From an uncultured Acidimicrobiaceae bacterium (lineage in GTDB: Bacteria > Actinomycetota > Acidimicrobiia > Spongiisociales > ZC4RG35), in the NCBI GenBank assembly GCA_964617995.1, contig CAZTXD010000007.1:1-49939 (forward strand): a stretch of DNA of 49,939 nt, read 5' to 3'. Position 1 is the first letter of the stretch; the number at the start of each line of letters is the position of its first letter. This document shows positions 30,612 through 49,939 of this stretch, piece after piece. A program made the position numbers and the translations under genes. Below the pieces are notes generated by a model. That model saw only the letters and a list, made by a program, of their open reading frames with translations. It was not told where the DNA came from and did not search any database.

Positions 30612-30690
30612 CGAAGGCAACCGTGGGAGGTCCATCCTGTCGCTCGGGATGGGAGGACCAGGGATGGACACAGTCCGATGCATGGTGGTA

Positions 30691-30714
30691 ACGTTCAACT
30701 GAATGGTTGAACGT
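30691..30714. promoter_or_regulatory. ArsR autoregulatory operator
   Basis: Perfect inverted repeat ACGTTCAAC-N6-GTTGAACGT over the arsR start. Confidence 0.8.
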
Positions 30715-31791: not shown

Positions 31792-31821
31792 ACCGACGAG
31801 GAGGTTGTCCTGCAGGTAGAC

Positions 31822-33625: not shown

Positions 33626-33628
33626 CGC

Positions 33629-35005
33629 TCAATTGTCCTTTCTGGCCGGTAGAGCCTGGCGGCCCTGCCCGGGCTTTCCAACGATTTCACCGTCGACCCA
33701 CGTGTCGACACCCCGCACCATCGTCCGCGCCACGGCCCCCTTGACCCGGCGGCCGTGGTAAGGCGTCCATCCGATCTTCGACAGGACCGAATCGTTGGTG
33801 ATGGTCCACTCCCGCTCCAGGTCCACCAGCACCACGTCGGCGTCCGAGCCGGGAAGGAGGGATCCCTTGGCGGGCAACTCGAAGATCCGGGCGGGGGTGA
33901 TCGAGACCAACTCGACCATCCGCTCCAGGGAGATCTTGCCCTGATGCCAGGCGTCGATCATGAGGGGGAGCTGATACTGGATCCCCGGCGTCCCGGTGTG
34001 GGCTGCCCAGGCGTCGGTCCAGCCCAGGTCCTTCTCCTCGCGGGTGTGAGGGGCATGATCGGAGGCGAGCATGTCGACCACGCCGGCTTCCATCGCCTCC
34101 CACAGGGCCTCCTGATGGTGCTCGGGTACCCAGTAGGAGAGGACGTAGGAGCCCTGCTTGTCGATGTCGCTCATGCGACCCAGGAAGACGGCCCAGTGGT
34201 TGACCTCACCGGACACGTCCACCCCCCGGGAGCGGGCATCGGCGAGCATCTCGATCTGGCGGACGGTTTGCACATGAACGATATGGAGCTTGCACCCGGT
34301 TGCCTCGGCCATGCGGATCAGCAGGGCGGTGGCCGTGTCCCAGATGATCCCGTCGTCGACGGCCAGAGTCTTGCCGTAGGCCTGGGGGCTGCGGTCGCCT
34401 CTGGCCCAGAATTCCTGTTCGACCACATCCATGATCCGCTGATCATGGGGATGGACCATCAGCCGCAGACCGGTGGCGGCCACCGCCTTCATCGCCCGAT
34501 ACAGGTCGCCGTGGTCGTGGATCCCGATGGCCGAGGGGTGGGGATAGGAGCGACCGGTGTCGACCACCATGTAGATCTTGTAGGCGGCGATCCCCAGGTC
34601 GGCCATGAGGGGGATCTCGTCGAGCACCTTCGCCGCCGGGTTGTGGTTGTAGTCGACGAGGCTCTTCGTCTCGTACATCTCGAGCACCGCTTCCAGGTCG
34701 CCCCTCGTCATGGTGGGCGGATCGAGGTTGGGCATGCCGAAGATGGTCGTGTAACCACCGGCAGCCGCTGCCTCGGTGGCGGTGGTGATGTCCTCTTTGT
34801 GGGTGTAGCCCGGTTCGCGGGTGTGGACGTGGACGTCCACGCCTCCGGGGATGGCCACCAGTCCTGAGGCGTCGACCGATTCGGCGTCGGCCGGGCCTGC
34901 GCCCGGGGCGACGAGCGCCGACACCCGTCCGTCGTCGATGACGATGTCGAGGGGCTGGAGGCGGCCTTCGACGAAGACCCGGGCTCCCGTGACGAGCCGC
35001 GTCAT
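33629..35005 (-). CDS. Dihydroorotase/allantoinase-like cyclic amidohydrolase
   Basis: DVHVHTREPG, AAAGG.TT..GMPN, YKIYM, HIVHV, ASDHAPH, KGSL.PG.DAD, SK.GWTPY. Confidence 0.92.
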   Translation of the reverse strand: MTRLVTGARVFVEGRLQPLDIVIDDGRVSALVAPGAGPADAESVDASGLVAIPGGVDVHVHTREPGYTHKEDITTATEAAAAGGYTTIFGMPNLDPPTMTRGDLEAVLEMYETKSLVDYNHNPAAKVLDEIPLMADLGIAAYKIYMVVDTGRSYPHPSAIGIHDHGDLYRAMKAVAATGLRLMVHPHDQRIMDVVEQEFWARGDRSPQAYGKTLAVDDGIIWDTATALLIRMAEATGCKLHIVHVQTVRQIEMLADARSRGVDVSGEVNHWAVFLGRMSDIDKQGSYVLSYWVPEHHQEALWEAMEAGVVDMLASDHAPHTREEKDLGWTDAWAAHTGTPGIQYQLPLMIDAWHQGKISLERMVELVSITPARIFELPAKGSLLPGSDADVVLVDLEREWTITNDSVLSKIGWTPYHGRRVKGAVARTMVRGVDTWVDGEIVGKPGQGRQALPARKDN

Positions 35006-35931
35006 GGCCGGTCCTCGATGATCATCGTGCTCTCCGGGGTGATCGCCTCGACCGCCCGAGAGCGCAGATGGGCGTCAAACCAGCCGATGATCTCGGTGAT
35101 CACGGCCTCGCCGTACTGGGCGTAGGCGGCGTAGTGGGTGGTGTGCCGCTGCATGATCAGCTTCTTGGGTTGGGCCGCTCGCTCGTAGAGGGCGACGGCG
35201 TGGTCGGTGGGCGTGACGGCATCGTCTTCGACGGCGATGACCAACAGGTTGCGGACACGGTCGGCGACATCCAGCGGCTTGTAGGCCATCACCGCCTCGG
35301 CCGCCCGCAGCGGCACCGAGGTGGGGATCCGGTCGTCGACGTCCTTCTTGACATTGCTCGCCTTCCGCTCCGGCGTGGGCACCATGATCTCTTCCCGGGG
35401 GTGGACCATCTCTCCCTCCCCCGAGGTGACTCTCTTGCGACGGTCGGCATCGAGGCGGTCCAGGAACTCGTACCACTCGTACTCCCGCCGCATGCGCCGC
35501 AGCCAATCCTCGCCGTCTGCTACCGGGACCTGGCTCACCGCGCACCGCACCCGGGGATCGTGCGCCGCCAGTAGGACGGCGTTGCCGCCTCCGGTCCCTC
35601 CCGAGCCGAACACGCCGATGCGGTCGCCGTCGATGTCGTCACGGGTCTGGAGGTAGGTCACGGCGTTGATGAGGTCCTCGAGCTGCATGGGCGGGGAAAG
35701 GGTGTTGCGATCCCCACCCGAGTCACCGAAGCCCCGGTAGTCGAAGATCAACACTGCGTATCCCCCTGCCGTCAGGGCCTCGTGATACGGCAGGTAAAGC
35801 CGGGCGTCCTTGAGGCCTAGCCACCCCGGACCCTGGACGATGGCCGGGAACGGTCCCTCGCCCGGTGGGCGGCGGAGGATCCCTGCCATGGGCTCGCCCT
35901 CCGAGTAGAACTGGACCTGGTCTTCACGCAT
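35002..35931 (-). CDS. Alpha/beta hydrolase-fold protein with an atypical nucleophile elbow
   Basis: FDYRGFGDSGG, IDGDRIGVFGSGGTGGG, EDDAVTP, TTHY. Confidence 0.88.
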   Translation of the reverse strand: MREDQVQFYSEGEPMAGILRRPPGEGPFPAIVQGPGWLGLKDARLYLPYHEALTAGGYAVLIFDYRGFGDSGGDRNTLSPPMQLEDLINAVTYLQTRDDIDGDRIGVFGSGGTGGGNAVLLAAHDPRVRCAVSQVPVADGEDWLRRMRREYEWYEFLDRLDADRRKRVTSGEGEMVHPREEIMVPTPERKASNVKKDVDDRIPTSVPLRAAEAVMAYKPLDVADRVRNLLVIAVEDDAVTPTDHAVALYERAAQPKKLIMQRHTTHYAAYAQYGEAVITEIIGWFDAHLRSRAVEAITPESTMIIEDRP

Positions 35932-38209
35932 CCGTTACCTCGGCTTTCTCGGACTGGTCTGGGAGGTTCAGGAGCTCCCACACCGCCTCCGGCGTGAGGG
36001 GGAGCCGCTCTGGCCAGCGCCCCGTCGCCCGACCCACCGCCGAGGCGACGGCCGCGCCGATCGGGTTGAGGGACCCCTCCCCACCGCCCTTGGCCCCGAA
36101 AGGCCCCACCCCATCGGCGCGCTCGACCACCACGCAGTCGATGAGGCGGGGCATGTCCCCCATCCGCGGCACCCGGTACTCCACCAGGTTCGGGTTGACG
36201 AGTTGCGGCCCGTCGTAGAGAAGCTGTTCGTAGAGAGCACCGCCCAGACCCTGGGTGGCCGCCCCCAGGTCCTGACCTTCCACCATGGCGGGGTTGATGG
36301 CATACCCGACGTCGCCCACGGTCACCAGATGCTCGACGGTGACGCGGCCTGTGTCGGAGTCGACCGACACGTCCACCCCGACCATCCCTATCTCCCAGAA
36401 GGGAGGCAGCTCCTCGAGCTCGCCGGTCCGTCTGACCACTCCGTGGCCCACCACCTCACCCTGTCGGCCGCCGAACCACTCTTGGACGACGACGTCGTAT
36501 CCGGCCTCGCCCGTCGGCCCCACCACCATGCCCTCAGCCGACTTGACCTCCTCGACCTGGCAGTCCATCACCTCGGCGCCCATCTCCTCGAGACGATGGA
36601 GGGCGTCGCGGCAGGCGCGCTGGACGGCCAGGCCGGTCAGGGTGGTGGTGCGGGAAGCTCCGGTCGTGCGCTCATAAGGGGTGCCGGAGGTATCGGACTG
36701 CACGACCTTTATGCGGTCGAGCCCGACCCCCAGCTCGGTGGCGGCGATCTGGGCCAGGGCGGTGCGGCTTCCCTGTCCCATCTCGGTCGATCCCGTGAGG
36801 AGGATCACCGAGCCGTCGGCCTGCAGGCGGACGATGACCGTCGACACCGGGAAGGCCCCGGCGTCGGATGCCGAACAGGCGAAGCCGAGGCCGCGCCCGG
36901 GGCCGGGCTCTCCCCCCCAACCCAGCTTGTCCAGGACGATCCCGAGGTCGGCGACGAGGTCGGCGTCCATGCCCCGTTTCCCGGGTAGGTGTCTTTCCCC
37001 GGGGTGGACCAGATTGATGCGTCGGAGATGGGCCGGGTCGACACCGAGCTGGTCTGCGGCCCGGTCCAGGTTGGTCTCTCCCGCCAGGGCGCCCTGAGGC
37101 GCTCCGAAGCCCCGGTACGACGACGAGGGCACGGTGTTGGTGTAGACCGCCCTCCCACGTGCCCTGAGGTTGGGGATCCGGTAGGGACCCATGCAGCGGT
37201 GGACCGCCTTGGTGAGTACCAGCGGTCCATTGTCGACGTAGGCGCCGGTGTTGAAGGTGAGATCGAAGTCCCGGGCGAGGATGCGTCCGTCGGCGTCGAA
37301 GGCCGACCTAACGCTGATGACGGCCGAGTCCGCCCGGGTGGTAAGGATGGATTGCTCGGCGTCGAGAGCGACCTTCACCGGCCGGCCGGTGGCCCAGGCT
37401 CCCACTGCGGCCAGCGGCTCGACCTTGGTGTACGACTTGGAGCCGTAGCCGCCCCCGATGAGGGGAGAACGCACCCGCACTCGATTCAGGGGAAGTGAGA
37501 AGATTCGGGCGAGGTCGTCCCGCACCTGGAAGGGATGCTGAGCGGTGGACACGACATCGAGGACGCCGTCGTCGAAGACGGCCACAGCGTTGTATGGCTC
37601 CATGGCGTAGGCGTAGAGCATGGGATACTCGACGCGACTCTCGACCACCAGGTGGGCGGAAGCGACCGCTGTGTCGACATCTCCCCATTCCAGTGCCGCT
37701 TCATGGGCGACATTGGAGCTCCTCGCCTCCGAGTGCGCCTCTGAGAAGGACCTGTCGCCCCTGTCGTAGCTCTCCTCGTGGAGGAGTGGCGCATCGTCGG
37801 CCAAGGCATCGTCGCAGCTGATAACCGCCGGCAGGTCCTGATAGCGGATCCTCACCAGCTCGCCGCCGTCGGCGGCGGCGTGAGGCGAGGTCCCTATCAC
37901 CAGGGCCACCGGCTCGCCGTAGAAGCGCACCTTGCCCAGGGCGAGGATCGGGTGGTCGGCCACGATGTGGCCGAAACGGGGGAACAGGCCCGCGAGGTCG
38001 TCTCCGGTGACGACGGCCATGACGCCCGGTGAGTTCAGGGCCTCTTCTGTGTCGATCCCTTCGAGGGTGGCATGGGCCCGGGTCGACCTGACAACATGCC
38101 CGTGCAGCATTCCCGCCATCGTGAAGTCGACCGCGTAGCGGGCCTCACCCGTGACCTTGTCCCGGGCGTCGACCCGGGTGGCGGATGTGCCCGCGCCGGT
38201 GCCGCTCAC
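35924..38209 (-). CDS. Xanthine dehydrogenase-family Mo-binding large subunit
   Basis: GTG 38209 (GTGA overlap). DKVTGEARY, IGGGYGSK, SYRGFG, EMGQG, TGASR, INP..VEGQ, GAKGGGEG. Confidence 0.94.
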   Translation of the reverse strand: MSGTGAGTSATRVDARDKVTGEARYAVDFTMAGMLHGHVVRSTRAHATLEGIDTEEALNSPGVMAVVTGDDLAGLFPRFGHIVADHPILALGKVRFYGEPVALVIGTSPHAAADGGELVRIRYQDLPAVISCDDALADDAPLLHEESYDRGDRSFSEAHSEARSSNVAHEAALEWGDVDTAVASAHLVVESRVEYPMLYAYAMEPYNAVAVFDDGVLDVVSTAQHPFQVRDDLARIFSLPLNRVRVRSPLIGGGYGSKSYTKVEPLAAVGAWATGRPVKVALDAEQSILTTRADSAVISVRSAFDADGRILARDFDLTFNTGAYVDNGPLVLTKAVHRCMGPYRIPNLRARGRAVYTNTVPSSSYRGFGAPQGALAGETNLDRAADQLGVDPAHLRRINLVHPGERHLPGKRGMDADLVADLGIVLDKLGWGGEPGPGRGLGFACSASDAGAFPVSTVIVRLQADGSVILLTGSTEMGQGSRTALAQIAATELGVGLDRIKVVQSDTSGTPYERTTGASRTTTLTGLAVQRACRDALHRLEEMGAEVMDCQVEEVKSAEGMVVGPTGEAGYDVVVQEWFGGRQGEVVGHGVVRRTGELEELPPFWEIGMVGVDVSVDSDTGRVTVEHLVTVGDVGYAINPAMVEGQDLGAATQGLGGALYEQLLYDGPQLVNPNLVEYRVPRMGDMPRLIDCVVVERADGVGPFGAKGGGEGSLNPIGAAVASAVGRATGRWPERLPLTPEAVWELLNLPDQSEKAEVTDA

Positions 38210-38688
38210 GATGTTGCCTCTCGCATGCGGTCGGCGGCGTCGAGGACCGCCTTCAGGATGGGTTGGTATCCGGTGCAACGGCAGATGTTGCCGTCCAACG
38301 CCTCGGCGACCTCCTCGGCACTGGGTTCGGGGGTCTCGTCGAGGAGGGCCTTGGACATCATCACGAACCCGGGTGTGCAATAGCCGCATTGGAGGGCGAA
38401 GTGGTCGACGAATGCTGCCTGGATGGGGTGGAGGTTCCCATCGGCGGCCAGACCCTCGATCGTCAAGACCTGGCGTTGGTCGATGTCGGCGGCCAGGTAG
38501 GTGCAGGCGCTCACCGGCAGGCCGTCGACGAGCACGGCGCAAACCCCGCACACCTGCATCTCACAGCTCACCTTGGTGCCGGTGAGCCCCAGCTCATCGC
38601 GGAGGAACTCAGCGAGGGTCGTACGAGCAGGGACGGTCCGGACATGCGTCCGTCGGTTGACCGTCGTCGTCACGGTGACCTGGCTCAA
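38206..38688 (-). CDS. [2Fe-2S] small subunit
   Basis: SCEMQVCGVC, QCGYCTPG, NICRCTGY. Confidence 0.95.
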   Translation of the reverse strand: MSQVTVTTTVNRRTHVRTVPARTTLAEFLRDELGLTGTKVSCEMQVCGVCAVLVDGLPVSACTYLAADIDQRQVLTIEGLAADGNLHPIQAAFVDHFALQCGYCTPGFVMMSKALLDETPEPSAEEVAEALDGNICRCTGYQPILKAVLDAADRMREATS

Positions 38689-39479
38689 CTGGTACCTCCG
38701 AGTCGCCTCAGCGCCTTGGTCACCATCACGGCGACGATGTGCCGCTTGTAGCGTTCGCCCCCCGTCAAGTCGGGTATGACCTCGACCCGGGAGGCGATCT
38801 CCTCGGGGGAGCCGTCGGCGGGGACCTCGAAGGTCTCAGGCCGGCCTCCGACGGCACCCACCACCACGCGGCGCGACCCCTCGGGCTCCTCGACGGCTGC
38901 GACGCCGACGGTCGGCCGTTCCATCGTCTGGAACTTGTCGTAGACGACCTTGCGACCCGCGACGAGAGGGATGGAGACGGTGGTGAGGAGCTCGTCGTCC
39001 TCGAGGTCGGCGGTGTACGGCCCCAGCACGAAGTCTGCCACCTTCACCCTTCGTTTCGAGCCGGTGGAGGTCAGCTCCACGTCGGCTTCGAGGGCGGTGA
39101 GCACAGCCGCGACGTCGGACTTGGGCTCGGCGAAGCAGAGGTTCCCTCCTATGGTGCCGACCGACCTCACCCGAACATTCCCCACCCGTTCGAGCACATC
39201 CGACAGCACGGGCAGAGAGGACCTCGCCTCGGGAGAACGGGCGACGGTCCGGTGGGTGGCGGCGCCTCCGATGGTCAGGATGTCATCGTGGATCGTCACG
39301 ACTCGGATGTTGGAGATCTGTTTGAGGTCGACGAGCGCCGCGGGGCGGATCAACCCTGCCCGCATGGCCAGCAACAGCTCGGTGCCGCCGGCATAGGGCC
39401 GGTAGTCGGAGGAGATGGCCTCCAGGGCGCTCTCCAGGTCGTGCGGCCGGACCAGGTCGAATGGAGGGAGCACGCTCAT
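38685..39479 (-). CDS. FAD-binding medium subunit
   Basis: ATG 39479. AGGTELL, VGNVRVRSVGTIGGNLCFAEP.SD. Confidence 0.92.
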   Translation of the reverse strand: MSVLPPFDLVRPHDLESALEAISSDYRPYAGGTELLLAMRAGLIRPAALVDLKQISNIRVVTIHDDILTIGGAATHRTVARSPEARSSLPVLSDVLERVGNVRVRSVGTIGGNLCFAEPKSDVAAVLTALEADVELTSTGSKRRVKVADFVLGPYTADLEDDELLTTVSIPLVAGRKVVYDKFQTMERPTVGVAAVEEPEGSRRVVVGAVGGRPETFEVPADGSPEEIASRVEVIPDLTGGERYKRHIVAVMVTKALRRLGGTS

Positions 39480-39928
39480 CCCAGGTCCCCGGCCGCAGCG
39501 GCGAAGAACTCGTCCAGCACCTTGTTGCCCTTGGTGCGGATCATCGATGCTCCCAGGGTCGCCACCCGGCCGGTCACCTCGTATCGCCCCTCCACCTCGA
39601 TGGTCGAGCCTGCGCCCTTCGGGGTGATCGTCATGGCGGCTTCCACCTGGATCCGCGAGGCCACCTGACGGTCCTCGCCGTCGGCGTTGAATGTGATTCG
39701 GCTCGGCTCTTCGACATCGGTGACGGCGATGGACAGGTCCGCCGACAGGCGGAATGGTCCCAGGCGGTCTGTGAGGACGGCGGAGTAACGACCGAGATGC
39801 TCGACTTCCTCGACGTTGTCGACGAGACCGACCCAGCTCGCCACTAGGTGGGGGTCGGTGAGCTTCTCCCAGGCGATCGGCGGTGGGACCGCGACGTGCA
39901 ACGATCGGGCGAACTGAACCACCGGCAT
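39476..39928 (-). CDS. CoxG-like SRPBCC protein
   Basis: W..L.DP..V, LGPF, V.GRVATLG..MI..K....L..FF. First gene of the Mo-hydroxylase operon. Confidence 0.85.
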   Translation of the reverse strand: MPVVQFARSLHVAVPPPIAWEKLTDPHLVASWVGLVDNVEEVEHLGRYSAVLTDRLGPFRLSADLSIAVTDVEEPSRITFNADGEDRQVASRIQVEAAMTITPKGAGSTIEVEGRYEVTGRVATLGASMIRTKGNKVLDEFFAAAAGDLG

Positions 39929-39986
39929 CAGGCACGCTGTCCTGACGCAGACGCGATTTGTGCCGGGGCCACCTGCTCAATCATCC

Positions 39987-40000
39987 GATTGGATCCTATT
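39987..40000. promoter_or_regulatory. GntR (VanR-like) operator, copy 1
   Basis: GATTGGATCCTATT, 12/14 match to the perfect palindrome at 40528. Confidence 0.7.
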
Positions 40001-40046
40001 TTCGAAAGCGGACGGTGTCGAATGGGTCGCAGATCGTGGGGGTCGA

Positions 40047-40466
40047 TCAGGGGAGTGTCCCGGGCGGTGTCGCCACCACCGCTTCGATCTCGACACGGGC
40101 ACGAGGGTCGGCCAACCCCGTCACGAAGGCCAGGGTGTTGGTGGGCGGGGAGCTGTCGGGGAACCATCGAGAGAAGATGGCCTCCCTTCCCTGGGCGAAA
40201 CCGGGCAAGTCGTAGCGGTCCACGAGGTAGGTCCTGAAGGCAACGATATCGGACGGAAGTGCCCCTAGATCTTCGACAATCGCCTCGATGGCCTGCAGGG
40301 CGCCCAAGGTCTGGCGGTAGGCGGTGCCGGGCATGGAGCCATCGGAGCCTCGGCCGGTCTGACCTGCGATCCAGGCGAGCCCGTGGTCGGGAGGGACGCG
40401 GGAGATGAGCGAGTAGGGACCGGTCGGGTCGGAGACACCGGCGATCTGGTCGCGACGGGACACCAT
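40047..40466 (-). CDS. Rid (YjgF/RidA) family protein
   Basis: PTGPYS, IAGQ, P.PTNT...V..L.....VEIEA. Start ATG 40466 or 40478. Confidence 0.88.
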   Translation of the reverse strand: MVSRRDQIAGVSDPTGPYSLISRVPPDHGLAWIAGQTGRGSDGSMPGTAYRQTLGALQAIEAIVEDLGALPSDIVAFRTYLVDRYDLPGFAQGREAIFSRWFPDSSPPTNTLAFVTGLADPRARVEIEAVVATPPGTLP

Positions 40467-40527
40467 TGCATGGAGCATAGGTGGCAAGGGTGGCGGAAAG
40501 AGCCCGGGGTCTGCTCCTGGGTGACAG

Positions 40528-40541
40528 GATTGGATCCAATC
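40528..40541. promoter_or_regulatory. GntR (VanR-like) operator, copy 2
   Basis: Perfect palindrome GATTGGATCCAATC in the rid/cupin divergent gap. Confidence 0.8.
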
Positions 40542-40575
40542 ACTATGCTCGCCAGACGCGACCGGGATCGACACT

Positions 40576-41616
40576 GTGACCGAAACACGGACCACCACTT
40601 CCCATTACGAGGTTCAGAAGAAGCGGCGCGGCGACGTGTTGGGGTACTGGAAGGATCATCAGCGGACCCTGGTGAAGGGCTCCGACGTCGAGCTGCAGGA
40701 AACGCCGCGGCGAATGAGGCGAGGGGTGATGGTCAGCGCCGACGGTGACGAGCCGAGCCTGGTCCTCGACGCCAACACCCACGCGATCGACCCGGGCGTC
40801 GTCTCGACGATCCATCGCCACTCCTGGGACGCCATGGCGTTCGTCGTCGATGGATCGGGGTGGACAGAGGTGGACGGACGGCGCCACGAATGGCGTCCTT
40901 GGGACACGATCTACCTCCCTGGCTGGGCGTGGCATCGTCACGGAAACGACGGAGACAAGACCGCAAGGCTCGTCTCGTTCAGCGTCCAGCCGATGGTCGA
41001 ACTGCTCGGACTGGCGGTGATGGAAGACGCCGGCGACACCGACGTCACCGAGCTGCCGTCCCGCCCCGTGACCACCGAGGTCGGCCTGGGCTCAGATCCC
41101 TACTCCAACCGGGCGCGCCGGCTGGCCGAGGCGGGTGTCGGATTCGGAGAGTCGCGGATCCTCACCGCCTACGACGACGTGAATTTCCGCGTGTCCCCAC
41201 GCGGAGCTCGCAGCGGGTTCCTGGTCGACCGCTCGATAGGGCATCGTACCCAGGGCCTGACAGCGGTCATGCACCAGCTCGCCCCGGGACTGTTCCAGTC
41301 CCGGCATCGCCACGGGGGGGAGGCCTGGCTGTATGGAGTGACCGGCCGCGGCTACAGCGTCATCGACGACGTCCGCTACGACTGGGGTCCCGGCGACCTG
41401 GTGGTCGTGGACCACTGGGCGTGGCATCAGCACTTCAACGCCTCCGACACCGAGATCGCCTCGCTGATCCGGGTGCACAACTTCGACACGCTGTACATGG
41501 GCATGAGCGCGCTGCTCGCTCCCATGAGCCTCTTCGAGGAGCTGCCCAAGCTCGACGCTCCCGATCTCAGCGGTGTCGAATGGCCCGACCCGCAGGCGGG
41601 AAGACCCGATGCCTGA
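40576..41616 (+). CDS. Bicupin, gentisate 1,2-dioxygenase-like ring-cleavage fold
   Basis: Two cupin sites: HRHSWDA...G.G.T.VDG...W.P.D...PGWAWHRH and HRHGGEA...G.GYS.ID...W.PGD....WAWHQH. Confidence 0.85.
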   Translation: MTETRTTTSHYEVQKKRRGDVLGYWKDHQRTLVKGSDVELQETPRRMRRGVMVSADGDEPSLVLDANTHAIDPGVVSTIHRHSWDAMAFVVDGSGWTEVDGRRHEWRPWDTIYLPGWAWHRHGNDGDKTARLVSFSVQPMVELLGLAVMEDAGDTDVTELPSRPVTTEVGLGSDPYSNRARRLAEAGVGFGESRILTAYDDVNFRVSPRGARSGFLVDRSIGHRTQGLTAVMHQLAPGLFQSRHRHGGEAWLYGVTGRGYSVIDDVRYDWGPGDLVVVDHWAWHQHFNASDTEIASLIRVHNFDTLYMGMSALLAPMSLFEELPKLDAPDLSGVEWPDPQAGRPDA

Positions 41617-42487
41617 GCAGCAGGAGTGGCGGGAGGACCGCTACGGCTTCCTCCGCTGGCTTGTCCTTCCTCAGGAGGGATGGCGGGACTGGTGGGACCG
41701 GATCTACGTCGACCCGGATCTGAAGGCCAGGCTGCGCGCCTACGCCGAGTTCTCGCTCCGTCACCGCGCCGACTTCTCACCGGTAGGCCTGCCCGTCCAC
41801 GGCATCGTGCTGCTCCACGGCCCTCCGGGCACGGGCAAGTCGTCTCTCGCCCGGGGACTGGCTCAGGTCGTGGCCGAGGGTTTCGCCGCCGAAGGCGAGC
41901 AGGTGATCTTCGCCGAGGTGGATCCCCACTCCCTTCCCAGCCAGATGCTCGGGGAGAGCCAGCGTAACGCCGCCAACCTGCTCGAGAAGTCGCTGCCAGA
42001 GCTGGCTGCCAAGGGATCTCCGGTCATCGTGGTGGTCGACGAGGTGAACAGCCTCGTCACCAGCCGCGACCTCGCCACCGGAGGTCGCGACCCCGTAGAC
42101 GTGATGCGGGCAACCGAGGCCGCCCTCAGGGGCATCGACTACCTCGCCTCCACTGTGCGGAACGTCCTGGTGATAGCCACCTCCAACTTCGAGACGGCGC
42201 TGGACGAGGCATTGCTCGACCGTCTCGACCTGGCCATGGAGGTGGGCCTGCCCGACGCCGAGACGATATCGGAGATCCTCGCCGACACGCTGGCGGAGTT
42301 GCCTGCCTCGTCGGTCAGCAGCGACGAGGTGCGGGATCTGGCCACGTCGCTGGTGGGCAGCAGCGGGAGGAACATCCGCAAGATCGTGCTGGAGGCTCTG
42401 GTGACGAGGGCCGACGATGCCTCATCGCCGCTCACCTATGCCGATCTCGAAGCCGTCGTCAAGAGACACGGCGAGGAACAGGCATGA
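41609..42487 (+). CDS. AAA+ ATPase, TRIP13/Pch2 (Cap6)-like
   Basis: LPVHGIVLLHGPPGTGKSSLARGLA, EVDPHSL.S, VVDEVNSL...R, DPVDVMRAT.A.L...D.LA, ATSNF, LDRLDL.MEV.LPD. Confidence 0.88.
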   Translation: MPEQQEWREDRYGFLRWLVLPQEGWRDWWDRIYVDPDLKARLRAYAEFSLRHRADFSPVGLPVHGIVLLHGPPGTGKSSLARGLAQVVAEGFAAEGEQVIFAEVDPHSLPSQMLGESQRNAANLLEKSLPELAAKGSPVIVVVDEVNSLVTSRDLATGGRDPVDVMRATEAALRGIDYLASTVRNVLVIATSNFETALDEALLDRLDLAMEVGLPDAETISEILADTLAELPASSVSSDEVRDLATSLVGSSGRNIRKIVLEALVTRADDASSPLTYADLEAVVKRHGEEQA

Positions 42488-43761
42488 CTGGGTCGGTGGA
42501 GGAGGTTCTCGCTCGCATCGACGAGTCGTACGAGGACCTCGCCGATCTCGCCTTGCGTCTCGGCAACACCTATGGCCCGGTGGGAAACGAGGAGCCCACC
42601 GCCCGCCAGGTCCATGATTGGTACCGCGAGGAAGGCCTCGACGCCGACTTCGTCCCGATGGTGGAAGGGCGCGCCAGTGTGGTAGGACGCCTCCGCGGCG
42701 ACGGGACCGGTAGGTCGCTGATCTTCAACGCCCACCTCGACACCGAGGCCTCGGGCCCCGACTACGACAGCCTGATGAACGTGCCCGACCCCAACAAGGT
42801 GGGGGCGAGGCGCGATGGGGACCGCATCTACGGTCACACGGTCCAAAACGATCGGGGCTGCATGGCCGTTCAGATGATCGCCGGTCGGGCCATCAGCGAG
42901 GTCGGGGTGCCGCTGAAGGGCGATCTCCTGTTGAAATCGGCCGCCGGAGAGACCGGAGCGGCTCCCGTCGACGAGTACCAGGGGATGCGCTACGAGTCGA
43001 AGGGGTTCGGTACCTCCTACCTCGTTCAGCACGGGTACGGGGCCGACTACGCCGTCATCGCCGAGACCACCGACTTCTCCGCCTCCTGGCACCAGTGCGG
43101 TGCCACCTACTTCAAGGTGACCTCCCGCGGTCGGAACATGTACACGCCCCGTCTGGAGAGGGGCTCGTCGCTGCAGGACCATCCCAACGCCATCGTCCGG
43201 GCGGCCGCCATCGTCGGCGCCATCGAAGAGTGGGCGATCGAGTTCGAGCGACGGCGCACCCGCGAGACCCCTTGCGGCACCATGGCCCCCAAGGCACAGG
43301 TGGGCGCCATGCGCGGCGGAATTCCCTGGCGGCCCAACCGCTCCTCCACCTACGCCGCACTCTACGTCGACGTTCGCACGCTCCCGGACGAGGACGTGCG
43401 GCCGATACACACCGAACTGACCGACGTCGTGCGTGGAGTCGATCCGGGAGCAGAGGTCGATGTCATCATGTCCAAGGCCGGCTACGCCGCCACCGACGAG
43501 GCCATCGAGCCACTGATCTCCACGATCCGACGGGCGCACGAGCAGGTGCGAGGCGTTCCCATGCCGGAGCGGGCGGAAACGGCGGTGGTATCGATGTGGC
43601 GGGACACGAACGTGTACAACCGGGTGGGGATCCCCGCCCTCACCTTCGGTCCCAGCCGGGGCAAGGCGGCCGTGCAGGGCACCGGCTATATGGAGCTCTC
43701 GAACATGATCGAGGGCGCCAAGATCTACGCCCTCACCGCTCTCGAGATATGTGGGCGGTGA
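42484..43761 (+). CDS. M20 (ArgE/DapE-like) amidohydrolase
   Basis: G.GTGRSLIFNAHLDT, IYG....NDRG, L.GDL, AVIAE, NAI, VDVR.LP, GIPALTFGP. Confidence 0.88.
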   Translation: MTGSVEEVLARIDESYEDLADLALRLGNTYGPVGNEEPTARQVHDWYREEGLDADFVPMVEGRASVVGRLRGDGTGRSLIFNAHLDTEASGPDYDSLMNVPDPNKVGARRDGDRIYGHTVQNDRGCMAVQMIAGRAISEVGVPLKGDLLLKSAAGETGAAPVDEYQGMRYESKGFGTSYLVQHGYGADYAVIAETTDFSASWHQCGATYFKVTSRGRNMYTPRLERGSSLQDHPNAIVRAAAIVGAIEEWAIEFERRRTRETPCGTMAPKAQVGAMRGGIPWRPNRSSTYAALYVDVRTLPDEDVRPIHTELTDVVRGVDPGAEVDVIMSKAGYAATDEAIEPLISTIRRAHEQVRGVPMPERAETAVVSMWRDTNVYNRVGIPALTFGPSRGKAAVQGTGYMELSNMIEGAKIYALTALEICGR

Positions 43762-43766
43762 TCTAG

Positions 43767-44993
43767 TTGACCACACGGCACGCTCCCGGCGAGCTCACCC
43801 CCAGGGACGCTCGCTTCAACGCGTGGCTGTCCTTCGTGGGAGCTGCGGTGGCCCTCACCGGCGTGCAGCTGATCGCTCCGTCGCTCCCCATCATGCGCGA
43901 CGCCCTCGGCCTGACCGACACCCAGCTGGCACTGGTCATGAGCGTCTACCTGTTACCGGCCGCGGTCGCCTCCATCCCCGTGGGTCTGCTGGCGGACCGG
44001 TTCGGGCGCCGCGTCATTCTGGGGAGCGCCCTGCTCCTCTTCGGGTTGGCGGGGCTGGCGCTCGTTTTCATCGACTCATACCCGGTGTTCCTGTCCGTGC
44101 GCTTCCTCCAGGGTCTCGCCTTTGCGGGGCTGCTTCCCCTCACCATGACGATCCTCGGCGACGCTTTCACAGGGTCACGACTCATCGGCGCCCAGGGTCA
44201 CCGATCGGTTGCGATGAGCATCGGGGATGGAGCTCTTCCCATCCTGGGAGGGCTGCTGGTAGTGGGAGGGTGGCAGCTCCCGTGGCTGGGTCAGGGGCTG
44301 GCGATCCCCCTTGGGGTTCTCGTGCTGTGGAGGCTGGTCGACGCTCCCGCCGTCAGAGCCAACAGCCGGGAGGGGCGTCTCCGTATCGGCGCGTTCCTGC
44401 GGCTGTTTCGCACCGGGTCGATCGTCGCCCTCCAGTACGCCGGCTTCCTCCGCATGTTCCTCAAGTTCGTGATCCTCACGTTCCTGCCGGTCTTCCTGGT
44501 GGACTTCCGTGAGCAGTCGGCGGCCTTCGCCGGCCTGGTGGTGGGCATCGCCGCCCTGGCCGGTACGGCCATAGCCGCGTCTTCGGGCCGGATCGCACGG
44601 CGGGGCAACCCCACACTGTGGATGATCGTTGGCGTCGCGGGAATGGGGTTGGCCCTGGTTTCCATGGTCCTCGTCCCTTGGGCAGGGGCGATCGTGGGGG
44701 CCGCCGTCGTATACGGGGCCAGCGATGGGCTGATGGGGGTGTTCACCAACTCATTCGTGACGGCAGCCACCAGCGCCGAGCAGAGAGCCAGCTTCGTCGC
44801 CGCCACCGGAGCGATCCGTAACTTTGCCAAGTTCATGGCGCCGGCCGCGTTCGCCGCTCTGACCATCGCCATACCGATGGTGCCCGCCTTCGTTCTGGTC
44901 GGAGTGCTGACGGTCGCATCGGTCGCGGTGATATCCCTGATCAGGCCGCTGGAGAGCCGTCTCGTCGATCGGGCGGCAGGGAGTGCGGGATGA
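43767..44993 (+). CDS. MFS transporter
   Basis: IAPSLP, GLLADRFGRR, RFLQG, about 12 TM segments. Confidence 0.92.
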   Translation: MTTRHAPGELTPRDARFNAWLSFVGAAVALTGVQLIAPSLPIMRDALGLTDTQLALVMSVYLLPAAVASIPVGLLADRFGRRVILGSALLLFGLAGLALVFIDSYPVFLSVRFLQGLAFAGLLPLTMTILGDAFTGSRLIGAQGHRSVAMSIGDGALPILGGLLVVGGWQLPWLGQGLAIPLGVLVLWRLVDAPAVRANSREGRLRIGAFLRLFRTGSIVALQYAGFLRMFLKFVILTFLPVFLVDFREQSAAFAGLVVGIAALAGTAIAASSGRIARRGNPTLWMIVGVAGMGLALVSMVLVPWAGAIVGAAVVYGASDGLMGVFTNSFVTAATSAEQRASFVAATGAIRNFAKFMAPAAFAALTIAIPMVPAFVLVGVLTVASVAVISLIRPLESRLVDRAAGSAG

Positions 44994-45724
44994 GCGTCCA
45001 ACCGGCCGGCCACGCCCACGGACAGGAACGTCCGGAGACGACACTCGAACAGTTGACGGCGGCCGCCCGGGAGACCTTCCGCACCGCCGAGGAGCGTGCC
45101 GTTGCCGTCATCCGTAACGCCATCTTCACCGGGATCTTCAAACCGGGGGAGCGTCTACCCCAGGATCGCCTCGCCCGCCTCCTCAACGTCAGCCGCCAAC
45201 CCATTCGCTCCGCCCTGCGCCAGGTCGAATCGGAGGGTCTGGTCGAGATGCATGCCCACAGGGGGGCGACGGTGAGGGTGCTGTCGCCCGAAGAGGTGGT
45301 GGATCTGTACGAGATGAGGATCCTCGTAGAGAGCTACGCCCTGAAAAAGACCGTGCGATCGATCGACGACGGCCAGCTCGCCGAGCTGTACCGCATGGCA
45401 GAGCGCCTGGAAGCAGCGCCCGACCACGAGACGTGGATGGTGGCCCGCCACGCCTTCTACGAGTACCTGTACTCGATCGGCAATACCCCCCGGGTCGTCA
45501 GCACCGTCATGCAGCTCCGGGCCGAGGTCAGCCGCTACACCGTGGGTCTGGGAGACCCTCGATCGCAGACCCACCTCGAGCTGCTCGATCGCATCAGCCT
45601 CGACGACCCCGATCTGGCGGCGTCATGGCTCGAGGCCCATCTACGTCATGTTGCCCGGACGCGTCGCCGTCAGGTGGAAGAGCTCGGATCGGGCGCCGAG
45701 GACTCTCCGGGCGGTCTCCCTTGA
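44990..45724 (+). CDS. GntR family (FCD) regulator
   Basis: PGERLPQ..LA..LNVSRQPIR.AL, HRGA.V, DLYEMR. Confidence 0.92.
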   Translation: MSVQPAGHAHGQERPETTLEQLTAAARETFRTAEERAVAVIRNAIFTGIFKPGERLPQDRLARLLNVSRQPIRSALRQVESEGLVEMHAHRGATVRVLSPEEVVDLYEMRILVESYALKKTVRSIDDGQLAELYRMAERLEAAPDHETWMVARHAFYEYLYSIGNTPRVVSTVMQLRAEVSRYTVGLGDPRSQTHLELLDRISLDDPDLAASWLEAHLRHVARTRRRQVEELGSGAEDSPGGLP

Positions 45725-45764
45725 GCTCTCCGGTCAGCACCGGCCCCGGAACGGGGAGGTAGCG

Positions 45765-47285
45765 GTGGAGATCTTCGACACGATGATGTCGGGGCTTTCG
45801 ATGCTCCTCGAGTGGCCCCTCCCGCTGTGGTTCGCCATCGGGATGATCAACGGGATGATCTTCGGGCTCCTGCCCGGCCTCAGCGGCTCGGTCGGCATCG
45901 CCTTGATGATCCCGCTCACGTTCGGCTTCAACACCGGTGAGGCGATGGCGTTGTTCGTGGCCGCCCTCGGCGGCCAGACCTTCTCGGGTTCGCTCACTGC
46001 CATCCTCTTGAACACCCCTGGAACGGCTCCCAACGCCGCCACCACCCTCGACGGCTACCCCCTGGCGCGCCTGGGGCGAGGAGGGTTCGCCATCGGTATC
46101 TCCGCGGCCGCGTCGGCGATGGGTTCGGTCATCGGGCTGGTCGTGCTGGTGGCTCTGCTCCCGTTCGTGCGGGAGATCATCCTGTCGTTCAGCTTCCCCG
46201 AGTTCACGATGCTGGCCGTGCTGGGCCTGGCGGCCATCGCCGCCGCATCGACGGGATCCCTGGCCAAGGGTCTCATCTCCGGCGGTATCGGGCTGATGCT
46301 CTCGTTCGTGGGCTTCTCGCCCATCGCCGGGGAGCTGCGCTACGTCTTCGGCATCACCCAGCTCTGGCAGGGCGTTGACCTTATCGCCGCCCTGATCGGT
46401 CTATTCGCCATCTCGGAGGTCATCCGACTCCTGGTGCGACAGGAGACCATATCGGTCGACCTCGGCGACGTGCGCTTTCCCAAGAAGGATGTGTGGGAGG
46501 GGGTCACCTTCGTGTTCCGGCATCCCTGGCTCCTGATCCGCAGCTCGGTGCTCGGCACCGGCATCGGTGCGGTCCCGGGAGTGGGCGGGACGGTCGCCTC
46601 TTTCCTGGCCTACTTCCAGGCCGTCCACAGCTCCAAGGACCCTGAGAACTTCGGCCGGGGGGATCCTCGGGGAGTCCTGGCTCCGGAGGCGGCCAACGAC
46701 GCCAAGGACGCGGGCTCTGCCCTTCCGTCCCTCGCCTTCGGTCTGCCGGGGAGCTCCGACTGGGCGATCATCCTCGGTGCTCTCGTCCTCCACGGTGTAA
46801 ACCCCGGGCCGAACCTCATCAGGGAATCGCCCGACGTTGTGTGGATCGCCCTCTGGGTGCTGTTCTTCGCCAGTTTCGCCGACTCGCTGATCGGCATCTT
46901 CGCGGCACCGTACCTCGTGAAGGTGACGCGGGTGCCGCCGTCGATCCTGGCGCCGATAGTGGCGACCCTCGCCCTGGTGGGGGCCTACGGCCTTCAGCGT
47001 CAGTTCGTCGACGTCATCTTCACGATCCTCTTCGGGGTCCTCGGCTACTACATGCGCCGCCACCATGTGCCCCTGGTTCCGCTCGTCCTCGGGCTTCTGT
47101 TGGGAGCGTCGGCCGAACGTGCCTTCTTCCAGTCGCTGCAGGTCTTCGATCAGGGCCTGTGGATATTCGTCACCCGCCCCATCTCACTGATCCTCGTGAT
47201 CCTGACCGTGCTGATCTTCGTCCTGCCGGTGATCACCACCCGCCGGCGTGCCCGCTCCATGGAGGCGATGAATGCGTCCGGGTGA
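45765..47285 (+). CDS. tctA: Tripartite tricarboxylate transporter large permease
   Basis: GTG 45765 after GGAGGT. GLLPGL, ILLNTPG, TTLDGYPL, GLFAISE, GAVPGVG, APEAAN, GLPG. Confidence 0.93.
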   Translation: MEIFDTMMSGLSMLLEWPLPLWFAIGMINGMIFGLLPGLSGSVGIALMIPLTFGFNTGEAMALFVAALGGQTFSGSLTAILLNTPGTAPNAATTLDGYPLARLGRGGFAIGISAAASAMGSVIGLVVLVALLPFVREIILSFSFPEFTMLAVLGLAAIAAASTGSLAKGLISGGIGLMLSFVGFSPIAGELRYVFGITQLWQGVDLIAALIGLFAISEVIRLLVRQETISVDLGDVRFPKKDVWEGVTFVFRHPWLLIRSSVLGTGIGAVPGVGGTVASFLAYFQAVHSSKDPENFGRGDPRGVLAPEAANDAKDAGSALPSLAFGLPGSSDWAIILGALVLHGVNPGPNLIRESPDVVWIALWVLFFASFADSLIGIFAAPYLVKVTRVPPSILAPIVATLALVGAYGLQRQFVDVIFTILFGVLGYYMRRHHVPLVPLVLGLLLGASAERAFFQSLQVFDQGLWIFVTRPISLILVILTVLIFVLPVITTRRRARSMEAMNASG

Positions 47286-47820
47286 ACGGAACCTCATGCT
47301 CATCTTCCTGGCGCTGGCTCTGGGTGGTGCTCTTTTCTCACTCGATTTCGACCTTCCGGAGGCACGGCTGTTCCCGCTGATCACCGGGGTCATCACCTCG
47401 GTCCTGATAGTCGCCTACTTCGTCGTGATGTCGATTCCGGCCCTCAAGGAGCCATTGAACGCCTACCTCGAAGACGACATCTTCATGAAGATCAGCGCAG
47501 CCGCCGACGGTATCGGGGAGGCGGAAGCGGAGGAGGCCGCAGCGATCTCGCATCCCCGCAGCGAGGTGCCGGACCCAGTCCGTCGCCGTCGGGAACTCAT
47601 CCTCTTCGCCTACCTCGGGGGTTTCGGCCTCCTGGCGTGGATCGTCGGCCTGGCCATCGCCTCGCCGATCTTCCTGTTCGCGGTGATCTACGGCTACTCA
47701 CGCGACTCGCTCAAGAGAGCCGTCTTCGTCACTGTGGCCACGACCCTCTTCCTCCACGTCATGTTCGTCGAGGTGCTGAGGCTCCGACCCCATTTCGGTC
47801 TGCTGAGGAACCTGTTTTGA
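47272..47820 (+). CDS. tctB: Tripartite tricarboxylate transporter small subunit
   Basis: 4-5 TM segments, ARLFP motif, lies between tctA and tctC. Confidence 0.8.
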   Translation: MRPGERNLMLIFLALALGGALFSLDFDLPEARLFPLITGVITSVLIVAYFVVMSIPALKEPLNAYLEDDIFMKISAAADGIGEAEAEEAAAISHPRSEVPDPVRRRRELILFAYLGGFGLLAWIVGLAIASPIFLFAVIYGYSRDSLKRAVFVTVATTLFLHVMFVEVLRLRPHFGLLRNLF

Positions 47821-47890
47821 ACACCAGCGAGTTCACCCGCAAGAGAAAGGAAGGTGAGTCCGTGAGGACCACCCACAGGAAGGAGACGAT

Positions 47891-48898
47891 ATGAGAGAAA
47901 GACGAAGGCGCAGACCGGGCGTCATTGCCGTTGCGATGGTCCTGGTCCTCGGGCTGGTTGTCGCCGCATGCGGAGATGCTGGGGACGACTATCCCTCGGA
48001 GAACTTCACATGGGTTGTTCCGTACAGCCCGGGTGGAGGATTCGACACCTACTCGCGCGGATTCGCCGAGGTCATGGCCGCCACCCAACTCCCCGAAGGG
48101 GTCAACGTGAGTGTGGAGAACATCACTCCGATCGCGGAAGCCCTCAGCAGGGTCTACAACTCCGACTCGCATTACGAGCTGGCGATCCTGCCGATGCCGG
48201 CAGCCGCCGCCCAGGAGATCCAGTTCCCCGACATCGCCCAATGGGAGACCGACAACTTCACGATTCTCGGATCGATGGAGGAGAACGCCTACGTCGTCTA
48301 CGCGGCGGCCGACGGCCCGTACCAGTCCTATGAGGACCTGGACGGCGTCGCCGACCTCAGGGCTCTGACCGTGGAGCGAGGCTCGTCATCCGGGCTCGCA
48401 ACCGCGGTGGCGATCCGCTCACTTGGACTCGACGCCGACCTGACGTTTGGGGCTGAAGGTTCCCAGGAGGTGGGCACCGCCCTGTTGCGGGGCGACGTGG
48501 ACTTCATCGTCTACGGCACGAGCGACATGATCGGGTTCATAGAGTCCGGTGACATGATCCCCCTGCTCTTCCTGGGCGCTGAGGATCAGCGACCTGAGGG
48601 ATACGACTGGCTCACCGACGTTCCCAGTGTCGCCGACATCGGTTACCCGGAGTTGGTAGGCGCGGTTACGGAGATGAGAGTCATCGTTGGCCCGGCGAAC
48701 CTCCCCGACGATGTGGTCGAGGAGCTCGAGCAGATCGTCAGCGACACGCTGTTCGGTGAGGAGTTCGCGGCGTGGGCCGAGGAGGCCGACCGTCCGATCG
48801 TCCCCAGGGACGCAGCGTCGACCCGCGATGCGAGGCAGAACCAAATCGAAACGATGCAAGAGCTCGTTCCCCGACGGGCGGAGGATGGCCTGATCTAG
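47891..48898 (+). CDS. tctC: Tripartite tricarboxylate transporter substrate-binding lipoprotein (Bug/TctC)
   Basis: Lipobox VAAC, YPSE...VVPYSPGGGFD..SR, V.VEN, ALLRGDVD, DVPS....GY. Confidence 0.9.
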   Translation: MRERRRRRPGVIAVAMVLVLGLVVAACGDAGDDYPSENFTWVVPYSPGGGFDTYSRGFAEVMAATQLPEGVNVSVENITPIAEALSRVYNSDSHYELAILPMPAAAAQEIQFPDIAQWETDNFTILGSMEENAYVVYAAADGPYQSYEDLDGVADLRALTVERGSSSGLATAVAIRSLGLDADLTFGAEGSQEVGTALLRGDVDFIVYGTSDMIGFIESGDMIPLLFLGAEDQRPEGYDWLTDVPSVADIGYPELVGAVTEMRVIVGPANLPDDVVEELEQIVSDTLFGEEFAAWAEEADRPIVPRDAASTRDARQNQIETMQELVPRRAEDGLI

Positions 48899-48997
48899 CT
48901 GCCTCCCGTGGGGCGGCCTGTCGCCGTGGCCCGCGGTCACGGCGACTGGCCGCCCAACGCAGCCGGAGACGCCAGATGGAAATCGATGGAGGTGGAT

Positions 48998-49657: not shown

Positions 49658-49850
49658 CGCGGATTCGGACGTCGCCGCCTCGGATGTTGGCGTTCGGGAG
49701 GTGCTGTCCCTATCGAGTCTCCCACTGGATGCCATCGTCGAAGCTGGCCGATCCCTTGGGTGCGATACCGTCTTGTCCGAACCTCAGCCACGAGCAGGAC
49801 TTCACCCGCAGTTCTTGTGGTCGATCGGTTCCTCTCGGTCGCGCGCTCGG

Positions 49851-49872
49851 TGTCACACCCCGGTCGTAGATT
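49851..49872 (+). promoter_or_regulatory. PafBC/RecA-NDp-type promoter motif
   Basis: TGTCAC-N10-TAGATT upstream of an RBS (AGGAGGG) and ATG 49902. Confidence 0.65.
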
Positions 49873-49901
49873 TCGGCTGCACCACGACAGGAGGGAACCC
49901 G

Positions 49902-49939
49902 ATGAAACTGTTCGTCGCCACCGAAGCAACCGATGAAAC
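49902..49939 (+). CDS. Hypothetical protein, 5' fragment (MKLFVATEATDE...)
   Basis: Good RBS, ATG, open to the window end. Too short to assign. Confidence 0.5.
   Translation, partial: MKLFVATEATDE

Follow-up and report, generated by a model that had tools for sequence, protein, structure and literature searches.

A TRIP13/Pch2-clade AAA+ ATPase without a HORMA partner is encoded beside a dioxygenase-like bicupin in a catabolic operon of an uncultured Acidimicrobiaceae bacterium

We analysed a stretch of 49,939 nucleotides from an uncultured Acidimicrobiaceae bacterium (contig CAZTXD010000007.1; hereafter the window), in which the gene of a small AAA+ ATPase follows the gene of a dioxygenase-like bicupin in a catabolic operon. 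This ATPase is a true member of the TRIP13/Pch2/Cap6 clade with intact catalytic motifs. It lacks a HORMA partner in its 90.8%-complete genome, and its locus is not a type III CBASS (an antiphage signalling system based on cyclic oligonucleotides). Sequence comparisons suggest that it is probably a HORMA-independent remodeller of the TRIP13 type, whose client would be the bicupin, engaged via its N-terminal tail. The ATPase family is a known one; what would be new is the class of client and the biological setting. The three features that carry this reading are as follows.

40576..41616, + strand: gentisate/salicylate-1,2-dioxygenase-like bicupin, 346 amino acids, two Cupin_2 domains, HRH...H motifs, neighbour of the ATPase
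40576..40632, + strand: N-terminal tail of the bicupin and start of its helix 1 (V/M-TETRTTTSHYEVQKKRR), Thr at alternate positions, proposed engagement tag for the ATPase pore
41609..42487, + strand: TRIP13/Pch2/Cap6-clade AAA+ ATPase, 292 amino acids (P0001), assigned by motifs, profiles, fold and trees

In the available text of Ye et al. (10.1101/694695) and Tromer et al. (10.1101/514885), prokaryotic Trip13/Pch2 is described only from HORMA/nucleotide-signalling operons, and eukaryotic TRIP13/Pch2 as a remodeller of HORMA proteins in the spindle checkpoint, meiosis and repair. A full-text search, with most subscription journals and supplements outside its reach, returned no paper in which a cupin or bicupin dioxygenase is tied to TRIP13, Pch2 or an AAA+ ATPase.

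Results

The ATPase belongs to the TRIP13/Pch2/Cap6 clade

The frame at 41609-42487 on the + strand is free of stop codons over 292 codons. It encodes one AAA module, the core of which begins near residue 35, and the N-terminal domain of the eukaryotic type is absent. We identified Walker A (GPPGTGKS), Walker B (VVVDE), sensor 1 (ATSN), a single Arg finger (LDRLD) and sensor 2 (SGRNIRK). An initial annotation, made from the sequence alone, had described a single-AAA protein of this length with intact motifs, and both the frame and the motifs were as it had given them. The catalytic motifs were invariant in an alignment of 29 family members with identity down to 52%, and the set (GPPGTGKS, DE, TSN, DR.D, SGR..RK) aligned with eukaryote-type as well as CBASS-type sequences. 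According to the available text of Ye et al. (10.1101/694695), a single Arg finger and a sensor 2 Arg are common to Pch2 of two-HORMA operons and eukaryotic TRIP13, and Pch2 of one-HORMA operons lacks this set; the window ATPase carries the two-HORMA/eukaryotic set as defined there.

Profile searches gave the same assignment. The PADLOC TRIP13 model PDLC00915 matched the ATPase with 256.7 bits (E 7.6e-77, profile positions 12-291 of 302). The runner-up PADLOC family was IetA with 74.8 bits, and other AAA+ proteins of the same genome scored at most 62 bits on PDLC00915. In Pfam only the classic AAA module PF00004 was found (69 bits). The MoxR-type models matched just the surroundings of the P-loop or a part of the module (AAA_5 22.2 bits, cut-off 22; AAA_3 14.1, cut-off 27; bpMoxR 15.7, cut-off 27). 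An identity as CoxD/MoxR was thus ruled out by the profile scores (14-22 bits, versus 257 for TRIP13), and the clade proposed in the initial annotation, TRIP13/Pch2/Cap6 rather than CoxD/MoxR, proved right by profile, fold and tree alike.

The best single-domain sequence match in the PDB was human TRIP13 or C. elegans PCH-2, at 101 bits for the ATPase sequence alone and 146-150 bits when the family profile was used; Cdc48/p97 outranked TRIP13 solely through the summing of its two domains. With the AlphaFold2 model of the ATPase (predicted local distance difference test, pLDDT, 89.5), Foldseek ranks 1-12 were taken by E. coli MS115-1 Trip13, C. elegans PCH-2 and human TRIP13 (6p8v, 4xgu, 6f0x, 5vq9, 5vqa, 5wc2, 6lk0). 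General AAA+ folds came just after these, with E-values approximately 1,000-fold weaker. The template modelling (TM) score with the eukaryotic proteins was ~0.76-0.82 relative to the window ATPase, and their AAA motifs, including DR.D and SGR.LRK, match. Unlike eukaryotic TRIP13, the window ATPase has neither the adapter-binding N-terminal domain of ~100 amino acids nor a HORMA client, and its pore loop 1 lacks Trp or Phe.

More than 1,000 relatives of the ATPase were found in databases. Those at 52-83% identity came mostly from Acidimicrobiia-type metagenome bins, and some were named 'pachytene checkpoint protein 2' by one source. Five giant proteins of 1,600-2,350 amino acids with 5-7 tandem AAA modules (P0122, P0123, P0127, P0138, P0224) also ranked high by summed score. 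Since their single modules reached just 45-97 bits on the family profile, we did not regard them as TRIP13-like.

We further compared the ATPase with Cap6, the bacterial Trip13 of type III CBASS with two HORMA genes. A tblastn search of plasmids returned matches of 38-42% identity over ~90% of the protein. All five bacterial plasmid matches that we opened were the first gene of an annotated AAA-HORMA-HORMA-CD-NTase-effector operon (AAA ATPase, two proteins of ~160 amino acids, one of them annotated as HORMA, 'CBASS oligonucleotide cyclase' and effector). The two kinds of ATPase share a single module of ~300 amino acids, the single Arg finger, the sensor 2 Arg and a similar pore loop 1 (H.L.S..LG.SQ). 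They differ in their neighbours, as the window ATPase has a bicupin and a catabolic operon where Cap6 has HORMA, CD-NTase and effector genes.

HORMA and CD-NTase genes were not found in the genome

We searched the window and the whole assembly (G000, 3.79 Mb, 90.8% complete) with the Pfam models bacHORMA_1 (PF18138), bacHORMA_2 (PF18173) and SMODS (PF18144), and no match was obtained. The same three models gave no match in five other genomes that bear the module. As a positive control, PF18173 scored 247 bits directly after the ATPase in the CBASS genome G821. In addition, we built custom hidden Markov models (HMMs) for CD-NTase and for the first and second HORMA genes of CBASS operons (hereafter HORMAa and HORMAb, labels of this analysis), each from eight sequences of the fetched CBASS loci. 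Against the six-frame translation of G000 they found nothing (best E 0.52), and held-out control loci scored 86-383 bits. No CD-NTase or effector was seen beside the ATPase, the neighbours of which were the bicupin, an M20-like deacylase, a transporter of the major facilitator superfamily (MFS) and a GntR regulator. The absence of HORMA and CD-NTase genes, first noted for the 50 kb, therefore extends to the assembly as a whole.

The bicupin stands beside the ATPase in distant loci

The open reading frame of the bicupin (40576-41616) ends 8 bp inside the ATPase gene, and its own stop codon shares the ATGA at 42484-42487 with the start of the following gene; both overlaps agree with the coordinates first reported. 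The bicupin has two Cupin_2 stretches, in accordance with its earlier label, and HRH and WH.H are invariant in both halves. Its AlphaFold2 model (pLDDT 86.2) matched best the folds of salicylate and gentisate 1,2-dioxygenases, at 18-22% identity and TM ~0.5-0.6. The scores against NCBIfam equivalogs were 76 bits for gentisate 1,2-dioxygenase (TIGR02272, cut-off 442) and 84 bits for 5-aminosalicylate dioxygenase (cut-off 650), and by these cut-offs the bicupin was not an ortholog of a characterised dioxygenase. We observed in addition that the full HRH...WH.H is invariant in both halves across 46 sequences and that the C-terminal tail EWPDPxAGRP is conserved. In characterised gentisate dioxygenases, only the N-terminal half is known to bind iron.

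Among non-CBASS loci with a bicupin homologue as an adjacent gene, the bicupin stood directly beside the ATPase in 17 of 17 (the window, L009-L011, L022-L027, L131-L133, L112, L037, L038 and L040, from two phyla and metagenomes). In the window clade the order bicupin-ATPase was kept while ATPase identity dropped to 54% (four species-representative contigs and six same-class genomes). Three further genomes of a second phylum (Chloroflexi according to the record of L010) had the same order at 45-47% ATPase identity within a different surrounding gene order, and on three metagenome contigs the bicupin lay directly upstream of an ATPase of ~43% identity. The gene order differed in L133 with the adjacency kept. 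In L112, from a genome of another class, the two genes were adjacent but convergent, beside an aldehyde dehydrogenase. These loci came in part from a search of genome contigs with the single ATPase sequence, which gave 5 loci, and from a metagenome search with the family alignment, in which the Walker A pattern dominated and 7 of 75 loci were useful.

We then counted both genes in samples of genomes, several of which are incomplete. Of 401 genomes of the class, 7 had the ATPase, and precisely these 7 had a close bicupin (E <= 1e-163); the next bicupin match had E 1e-16. Of 381 genomes of the second phylum, 6 were matched by the TRIP13 profile, namely four with bicupin-linked ATPases, one with a complete CBASS operon (L130) and one other (G1000). 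A bicupin of at least 58% identity was present in 4 of the 381, which were the four with bicupin-linked ATPases. At ortholog level neither gene was found alone in any of the 401 + 381 genomes. The TRIP13 profile matched 3 of 401 genomes drawn from across the window's own phylum. As related genomes are not independent samples, we give these counts without statistics.

The recurrence of bicupin-ATPase loci rejects a one-off placement, and the close homologues do not all lie in CBASS loci, since cupin-linked ones occur in two phyla and in metagenomes. The word 'orphan', which the initial annotation had used of the ATPase, holds as to the lack of HORMA and fails otherwise, given its many relatives and its conserved bicupin partner. 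The homologues recur with the bicupin in catabolic operons, as the annotation had asked to be checked. The bicupin, the M20 enzyme and the molybdenum (Mo) enzyme had been named there as candidate clients, and two further features were compared.

42484..43761, + strand: diverged ArgE/DapE-type (M20) deacylase-like protein, 425 amino acids, coupled through ATGA, a frequent and not universal companion
35924..39928, - strand: divergent catabolic cluster of Mo-hydroxylase large subunit, 2Fe-2S subunit, FAD subunit and CoxG-like protein, frequent context

The M20-like gene follows the ATPase in 8 of 10 window-clade loci; it is missing at L009 and L022, and none was found on the 12-kb contig of L112. 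Most window-clade loci, and L131, have Mo-hydroxylase subunits and CoxG at a distance of 10 kb or less, and searches of the L112 contig and of the 9.5-kb stretch of L037 gave no Mo-hydroxylase homologue. Neither is therefore an obligate partner, and of the three candidates only the bicupin was always adjacent.

A second TRIP13-like paralogue of 40% identity was found in a genome that also bears the bicupin-ATPase-M20 module (L028, G106:C97, 6859-8296; the module is L023). It stands directly after a monocupin of 167 amino acids without a Thr tail, with a second Mo-hydroxylase cluster, a thiamine diphosphate-dependent (ThDP) enzyme and an NAD-dependent dehydrogenase nearby.

The bicupin N-terminus is similar to the tail that Pch2 takes hold of in HORMA proteins

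In the bicupin model, residues 1-9 are unstructured (mean pLDDT 57 for residues 1-10) and a helix follows at 10-28. The N-terminus is nearly invariant in the window clade (M-T-E-T-R-T-T-T-S-H-Y-E-V-Q-K-K-R-R), and in the other clades it takes the form T-x-T-x-T-x-V-T-H-Y/W (for example MKTTTHTQVTHYEIQ, MATHTTTQVSHYHVQ and MVTRTRTNVTHWEVQ). We collected as a family set the 120 best database relatives of the bicupin, at 57-87% identity. The motif [ST]H[YWF]x[VI]Q..RR was present in 119 of them, the exception being a truncated fragment, and in most it begins 8-11 residues from the annotated start. The eight residues ahead of the motif were Ser or Thr in 64% of positions (614/952), versus 12% over the whole proteins.

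We tested for a run of [ST]x[ST]x[ST] within the first 20 residues. Such a run was present in 109/120 bicupins of the family and in 8/8 HORMAb proteins, which begin with MSTSTSTTTYTRTHTATH..., ...TQTRTHTATHTATHL... or MTTVAAYSYTHSVTYV... in the eight sampled CBASS operons; the HORMAb of G821 is a bacHORMA_2-type protein. It was found in none of the eight HORMAa proteins, none of the eight CD-NTases, 1/120 database ATPases and 4/149 ATPase representatives. Random 20-residue windows taken from the long frames of the genome had it in 601 of 20,000 cases (3%). In the available text of Ye et al. (10.1101/694695), the Pch2 client has an extended N-terminus that precedes helix alpha-A and in which every other residue is Ser or Thr; this tail is held by pore loops 1 and 2 with a periodicity of two residues, and its deletion abolishes the action of Pch2. 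In sequence, the bicupin tail is similar to the one that gives Pch2 its grip on HORMA proteins.

The closest bicupin relatives without an AAA neighbour (L140-L143, four genomes of the second phylum, 36-37% identity to the bicupin) keep the helix start THYD[IV]QM[DE]RR. Their tail is M-R-E-R-E-R-E-[IV]-[QA] (MREREREIQTHY) and lacks the Ser/Thr alternation. A profile search of these four genomes gave no TRIP13-like match. Three other bicupins of the module loci, which do not adjoin the ATPase, are also without the Thr tail. The tail thus goes with the ATPase and not with the bicupin fold. We observed that the alternating Arg/Glu tail of L140-L143 sits exactly where the Thr tail would, as if it had been re-coded rather than lost.

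On the side of the ATPase, we compared the His of NP.D.HRAT, which follows Walker B and by alignment would fall in pore loop 2. All 10 HORMA-linked ATPases retain this His, as do those of 7 cupin-linked loci that do not belong to the window clade. In 10/10 loci of the window clade the position holds M, I or A, and the bicupin tails there read ..TTSHY and not ..QVTHY. This covariation is weak, being a single event at the level of the lineage.

Cupin-linked ATPases fall outside the CBASS clade

Trees were built from the AAA modules of the 150 best representatives (97 clusters at E <= 1e-30) and of all fetched loci, with fragments dropped and at least 250 profile positions covered in each row. 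The third tree was made without 24 distant or long-branch rows. The genomes G538 and G1000, flagged as unpublished, supplied just a control locus and one unlabelled row, and none of our claims depends on them. We used LG+G4 and LG+C20 with posterior mean site frequencies (PMSF), a Cdc48-like outgroup and quick searches, and support was assessed by the Shimodaira-Hasegawa-like approximate likelihood ratio test (SH-aLRT) only.

The TRIP13-like superclade, with the window protein in it, split from the Cdc48-like domains with support of 99-100. Eukaryote-type rows, identified by TRIP13_N and lid domains, formed a separate clade, and the window protein fell in a bacterial branch shared with the CBASS rows (support 98-99 in two trees, 91 in the 89-row tree), sister to these or nested with them. 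In the 89-row tree, where 33 rows are unlabelled for genomic context, all nine CBASS-context rows lay inside one clade of 29 rows (support 95). None of the 20 cupin-linked rows lay inside it. They made up three groups, namely the window clade (12 rows, support 99), the second-phylum loci together with the monocupin paralogue, and the sister of the CBASS clade, which has 10 rows (support 98). When the tree is rooted on the Cdc48-like domains, the cupin-linked lineages branch as a grade below the CBASS clade. A single clade of all cupin-linked rows was not rejected (difference in log-likelihood 10, approximately unbiased (AU) test p = 0.115; 41 rows of known context, LG+G4). Consequently the direction could be the reverse of immune-to-metabolic, or there could be two sister lineages. 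The initial annotation had seen in the ATPase an immune-type remodeller that was repurposed, and this direction is not supported by the trees.

An archaeal-type subclade of TRIP13-like proteins with C-terminal extensions (512-592 amino acids) was also seen, which comprises L033 from a plasmid of Haloarcula halophila and rows P0171, P0202, P0243 and P0260. Downstream of the ATPase on the L033 plasmid, our custom HMMs gave HORMAb-like matches. This is in line with the haloarchaeal HORMA-Trip13 operons mentioned in the available text of Tromer et al. (10.1101/514885).

Discussion

Our preferred explanation is that the window ATPase probably remodels the bicupin without any HORMA protein. It would form a hexamer, the pore loops of which would grip the exposed Thr-alternating N-tail of the bicupin, as Pch2/TRIP13 does with the Ser/Thr-alternating N-tail of HORMA. 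A few ATP-driven steps could then pull helix 1 and partly unfold or re-set the bicupin. The purpose may be to restore or switch a ring-cleaving Fe(II) dioxygenase, by releasing a dead-end or oxidised state or by altering its assembly. We favour an activase or re-setter of such an enzyme because of the salicylate/gentisate dioxygenase-like fold and the HRH...H motifs in both halves; this purpose, for the bicupin specifically, is put forward tentatively and with less than even confidence. Binding, threading and the effect on activity are what we infer from the comparisons above. A 1:1 complex prediction of ATPase and bicupin scored 0.00, the controls themselves did not fold, and we counted the result neither way.

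Rubisco activase and other AAA+ enzyme activases are hexamers that stand beside or act on one metabolic enzyme, pull a terminal tail and reset an inhibited active site. They belong to AAA+ clades different from that of the window ATPase, and the likeness would be one of functional analogy only.

Several observations weigh against this explanation. Adjacency and co-occurrence are expected for any gene pair of one tightly inherited operon. The monocupin of L028 has no Thr tail, and so the tail model fails for some cupin-linked ATPases. Owing to the His swap in the window clade, the recognition chemistry cannot match that of the CBASS relatives exactly. Pore loop 1 (PSQMLG) is without an aromatic residue, as it is in the CBASS relatives. 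In solved gentisate and salicylate dioxygenases, N-terminal arms are said to contribute to subunit contacts, and the tail could thus serve assembly alone. Finally, the assembly in which HORMA was sought is 90.8% complete, and the search with PF18138 (bacHORMA_1) had no positive control.

One alternative is that the bicupin is itself a ligand-sensing switch in the role of HORMA and is reset by the ATPase, the pair regulating the pathway or an output in signalling or defence that is not yet recognised. TRIP13-family ATPases do reset conformational switches, as the available text of Ye et al. (10.1101/694695) sets out. The metal and ligand motifs kept in both cupin halves would suit a sensor, as would the scores far below the dioxygenase cut-offs. 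We nevertheless consider this unlikely, because the context is catabolic throughout (transporters, GntR regulator, hydrolases, Mo-hydroxylase), no effector-like or mobile-element genes were seen beside the pair, and the HRH...H motifs in a gentisate/salicylate-dioxygenase-like fold fit catalysis.

The ATPase might also serve another enzyme of the operon, either in Mo-hydroxylase maturation or cofactor insertion, like CoxD, or as a chaperone of the M20-like protein, in which case the adjacency to the bicupin would be a matter of operon architecture. As in CoxD/MoxR systems, the AAA+ gene shares its locus with a CoxLMS-like Mo-hydroxylase and CoxG. The initial annotation remarked that coxD/E and xdhC are missing from the window (no search aimed at these was made), and the M20-like gene is translationally coupled to the ATPase. 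Both candidate clients are nevertheless absent from some loci with the ATPase, L112 having an aldehyde dehydrogenase instead. Unlike CoxD/MoxR, the ATPase has no VWA partner, and the MoxR-type models stayed below their cut-offs or, for AAA_5, at it. As it is the bicupin that bears the Thr tail, which goes along with the ATPase from genome to genome, we regard service to another enzyme as quite unlikely.

That there is no functional coupling at all, the ATPase being a decayed CBASS leftover or a general-purpose AAA+ protein co-inherited with the operon, is very unlikely: related genomes do share operons by descent, but the catalytic motifs are invariant down to 52% identity, adjacency survives rearrangement (L112, L133) and 43-47% ATPase identity across phyla, neither gene was found alone at ortholog level, and the custom HMMs detected no HORMA or CD-NTase remnants in the six frames of G000.

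The remodelling of a bicupin by a TRIP13-type ATPase, if correct, would have several consequences. Diverse TRIP13-clade ATPases of more than one phylum, without HORMA and coupled to a dioxygenase-like bicupin, would be a concrete case of a different client class. The finding suggests that the recognition element is a transferable tail and not a fold, and it bears on the origin of the immune and eukaryotic HORMA-TRIP13 modules. In practical terms, expression of this bicupin subfamily in active form may require a dedicated ATP-dependent helper. PDLC00915 scores the ATPases of metabolic operons with 247-325 bits, and a TRIP13 match alone is therefore not evidence of CBASS.

The bicupin-linked state could even be the older one. 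A TRIP13-type ATPase would then have been first an activase of a metabolic dioxygenase, working via a Thr-alternating N-tail, and CBASS would later have taken up the ATPase together with the tail code on a HORMA protein. We think this order of events rather doubtful. If it were true, the HORMA-TRIP13 pairing inherited by eukaryotes would descend from an enzyme-repair module, and TRIP13-family ATPases would recognise a portable N-terminal tag, not the HORMA fold as such.

Surroundings of the module

The M20-like protein had no Pfam match at E <= 0.001 (M20_dimer was weak, E 0.0056) and scored 104 bits against NCBIfam TIGR01910, under the cut-off of that model. The protein is a diverged M20 deacylase of the ArgE/DapE type. 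The gene is so diverged that Pfam Peptidase_M20 misses it, and just the NCBIfam ArgE/DapE models match, below their cut-offs. Further downstream, one more feature belongs to the operon context.

43767..45724, + strand: MFS transporter and GntR/FCD regulator, downstream in the same direction

RidA and an alpha/beta hydrolase were also present around the module. Taken together, the surroundings at 30000-49939 point to catabolism of an N-heteroaromatic or aromatic acid. Candidate substrates of the bicupin would be hydroxylated acids of these kinds, as products of the neighbouring Mo-hydroxylase. Further neighbours were Tct transporter subunits and an isochorismatase-like protein, with labels read from the sequence and not profile-scanned. 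We also observed in 30000-49939 a luciferase-like monooxygenase and a dihydroorotase-like amidohydrolase, several of these labels again being read from the sequence alone.

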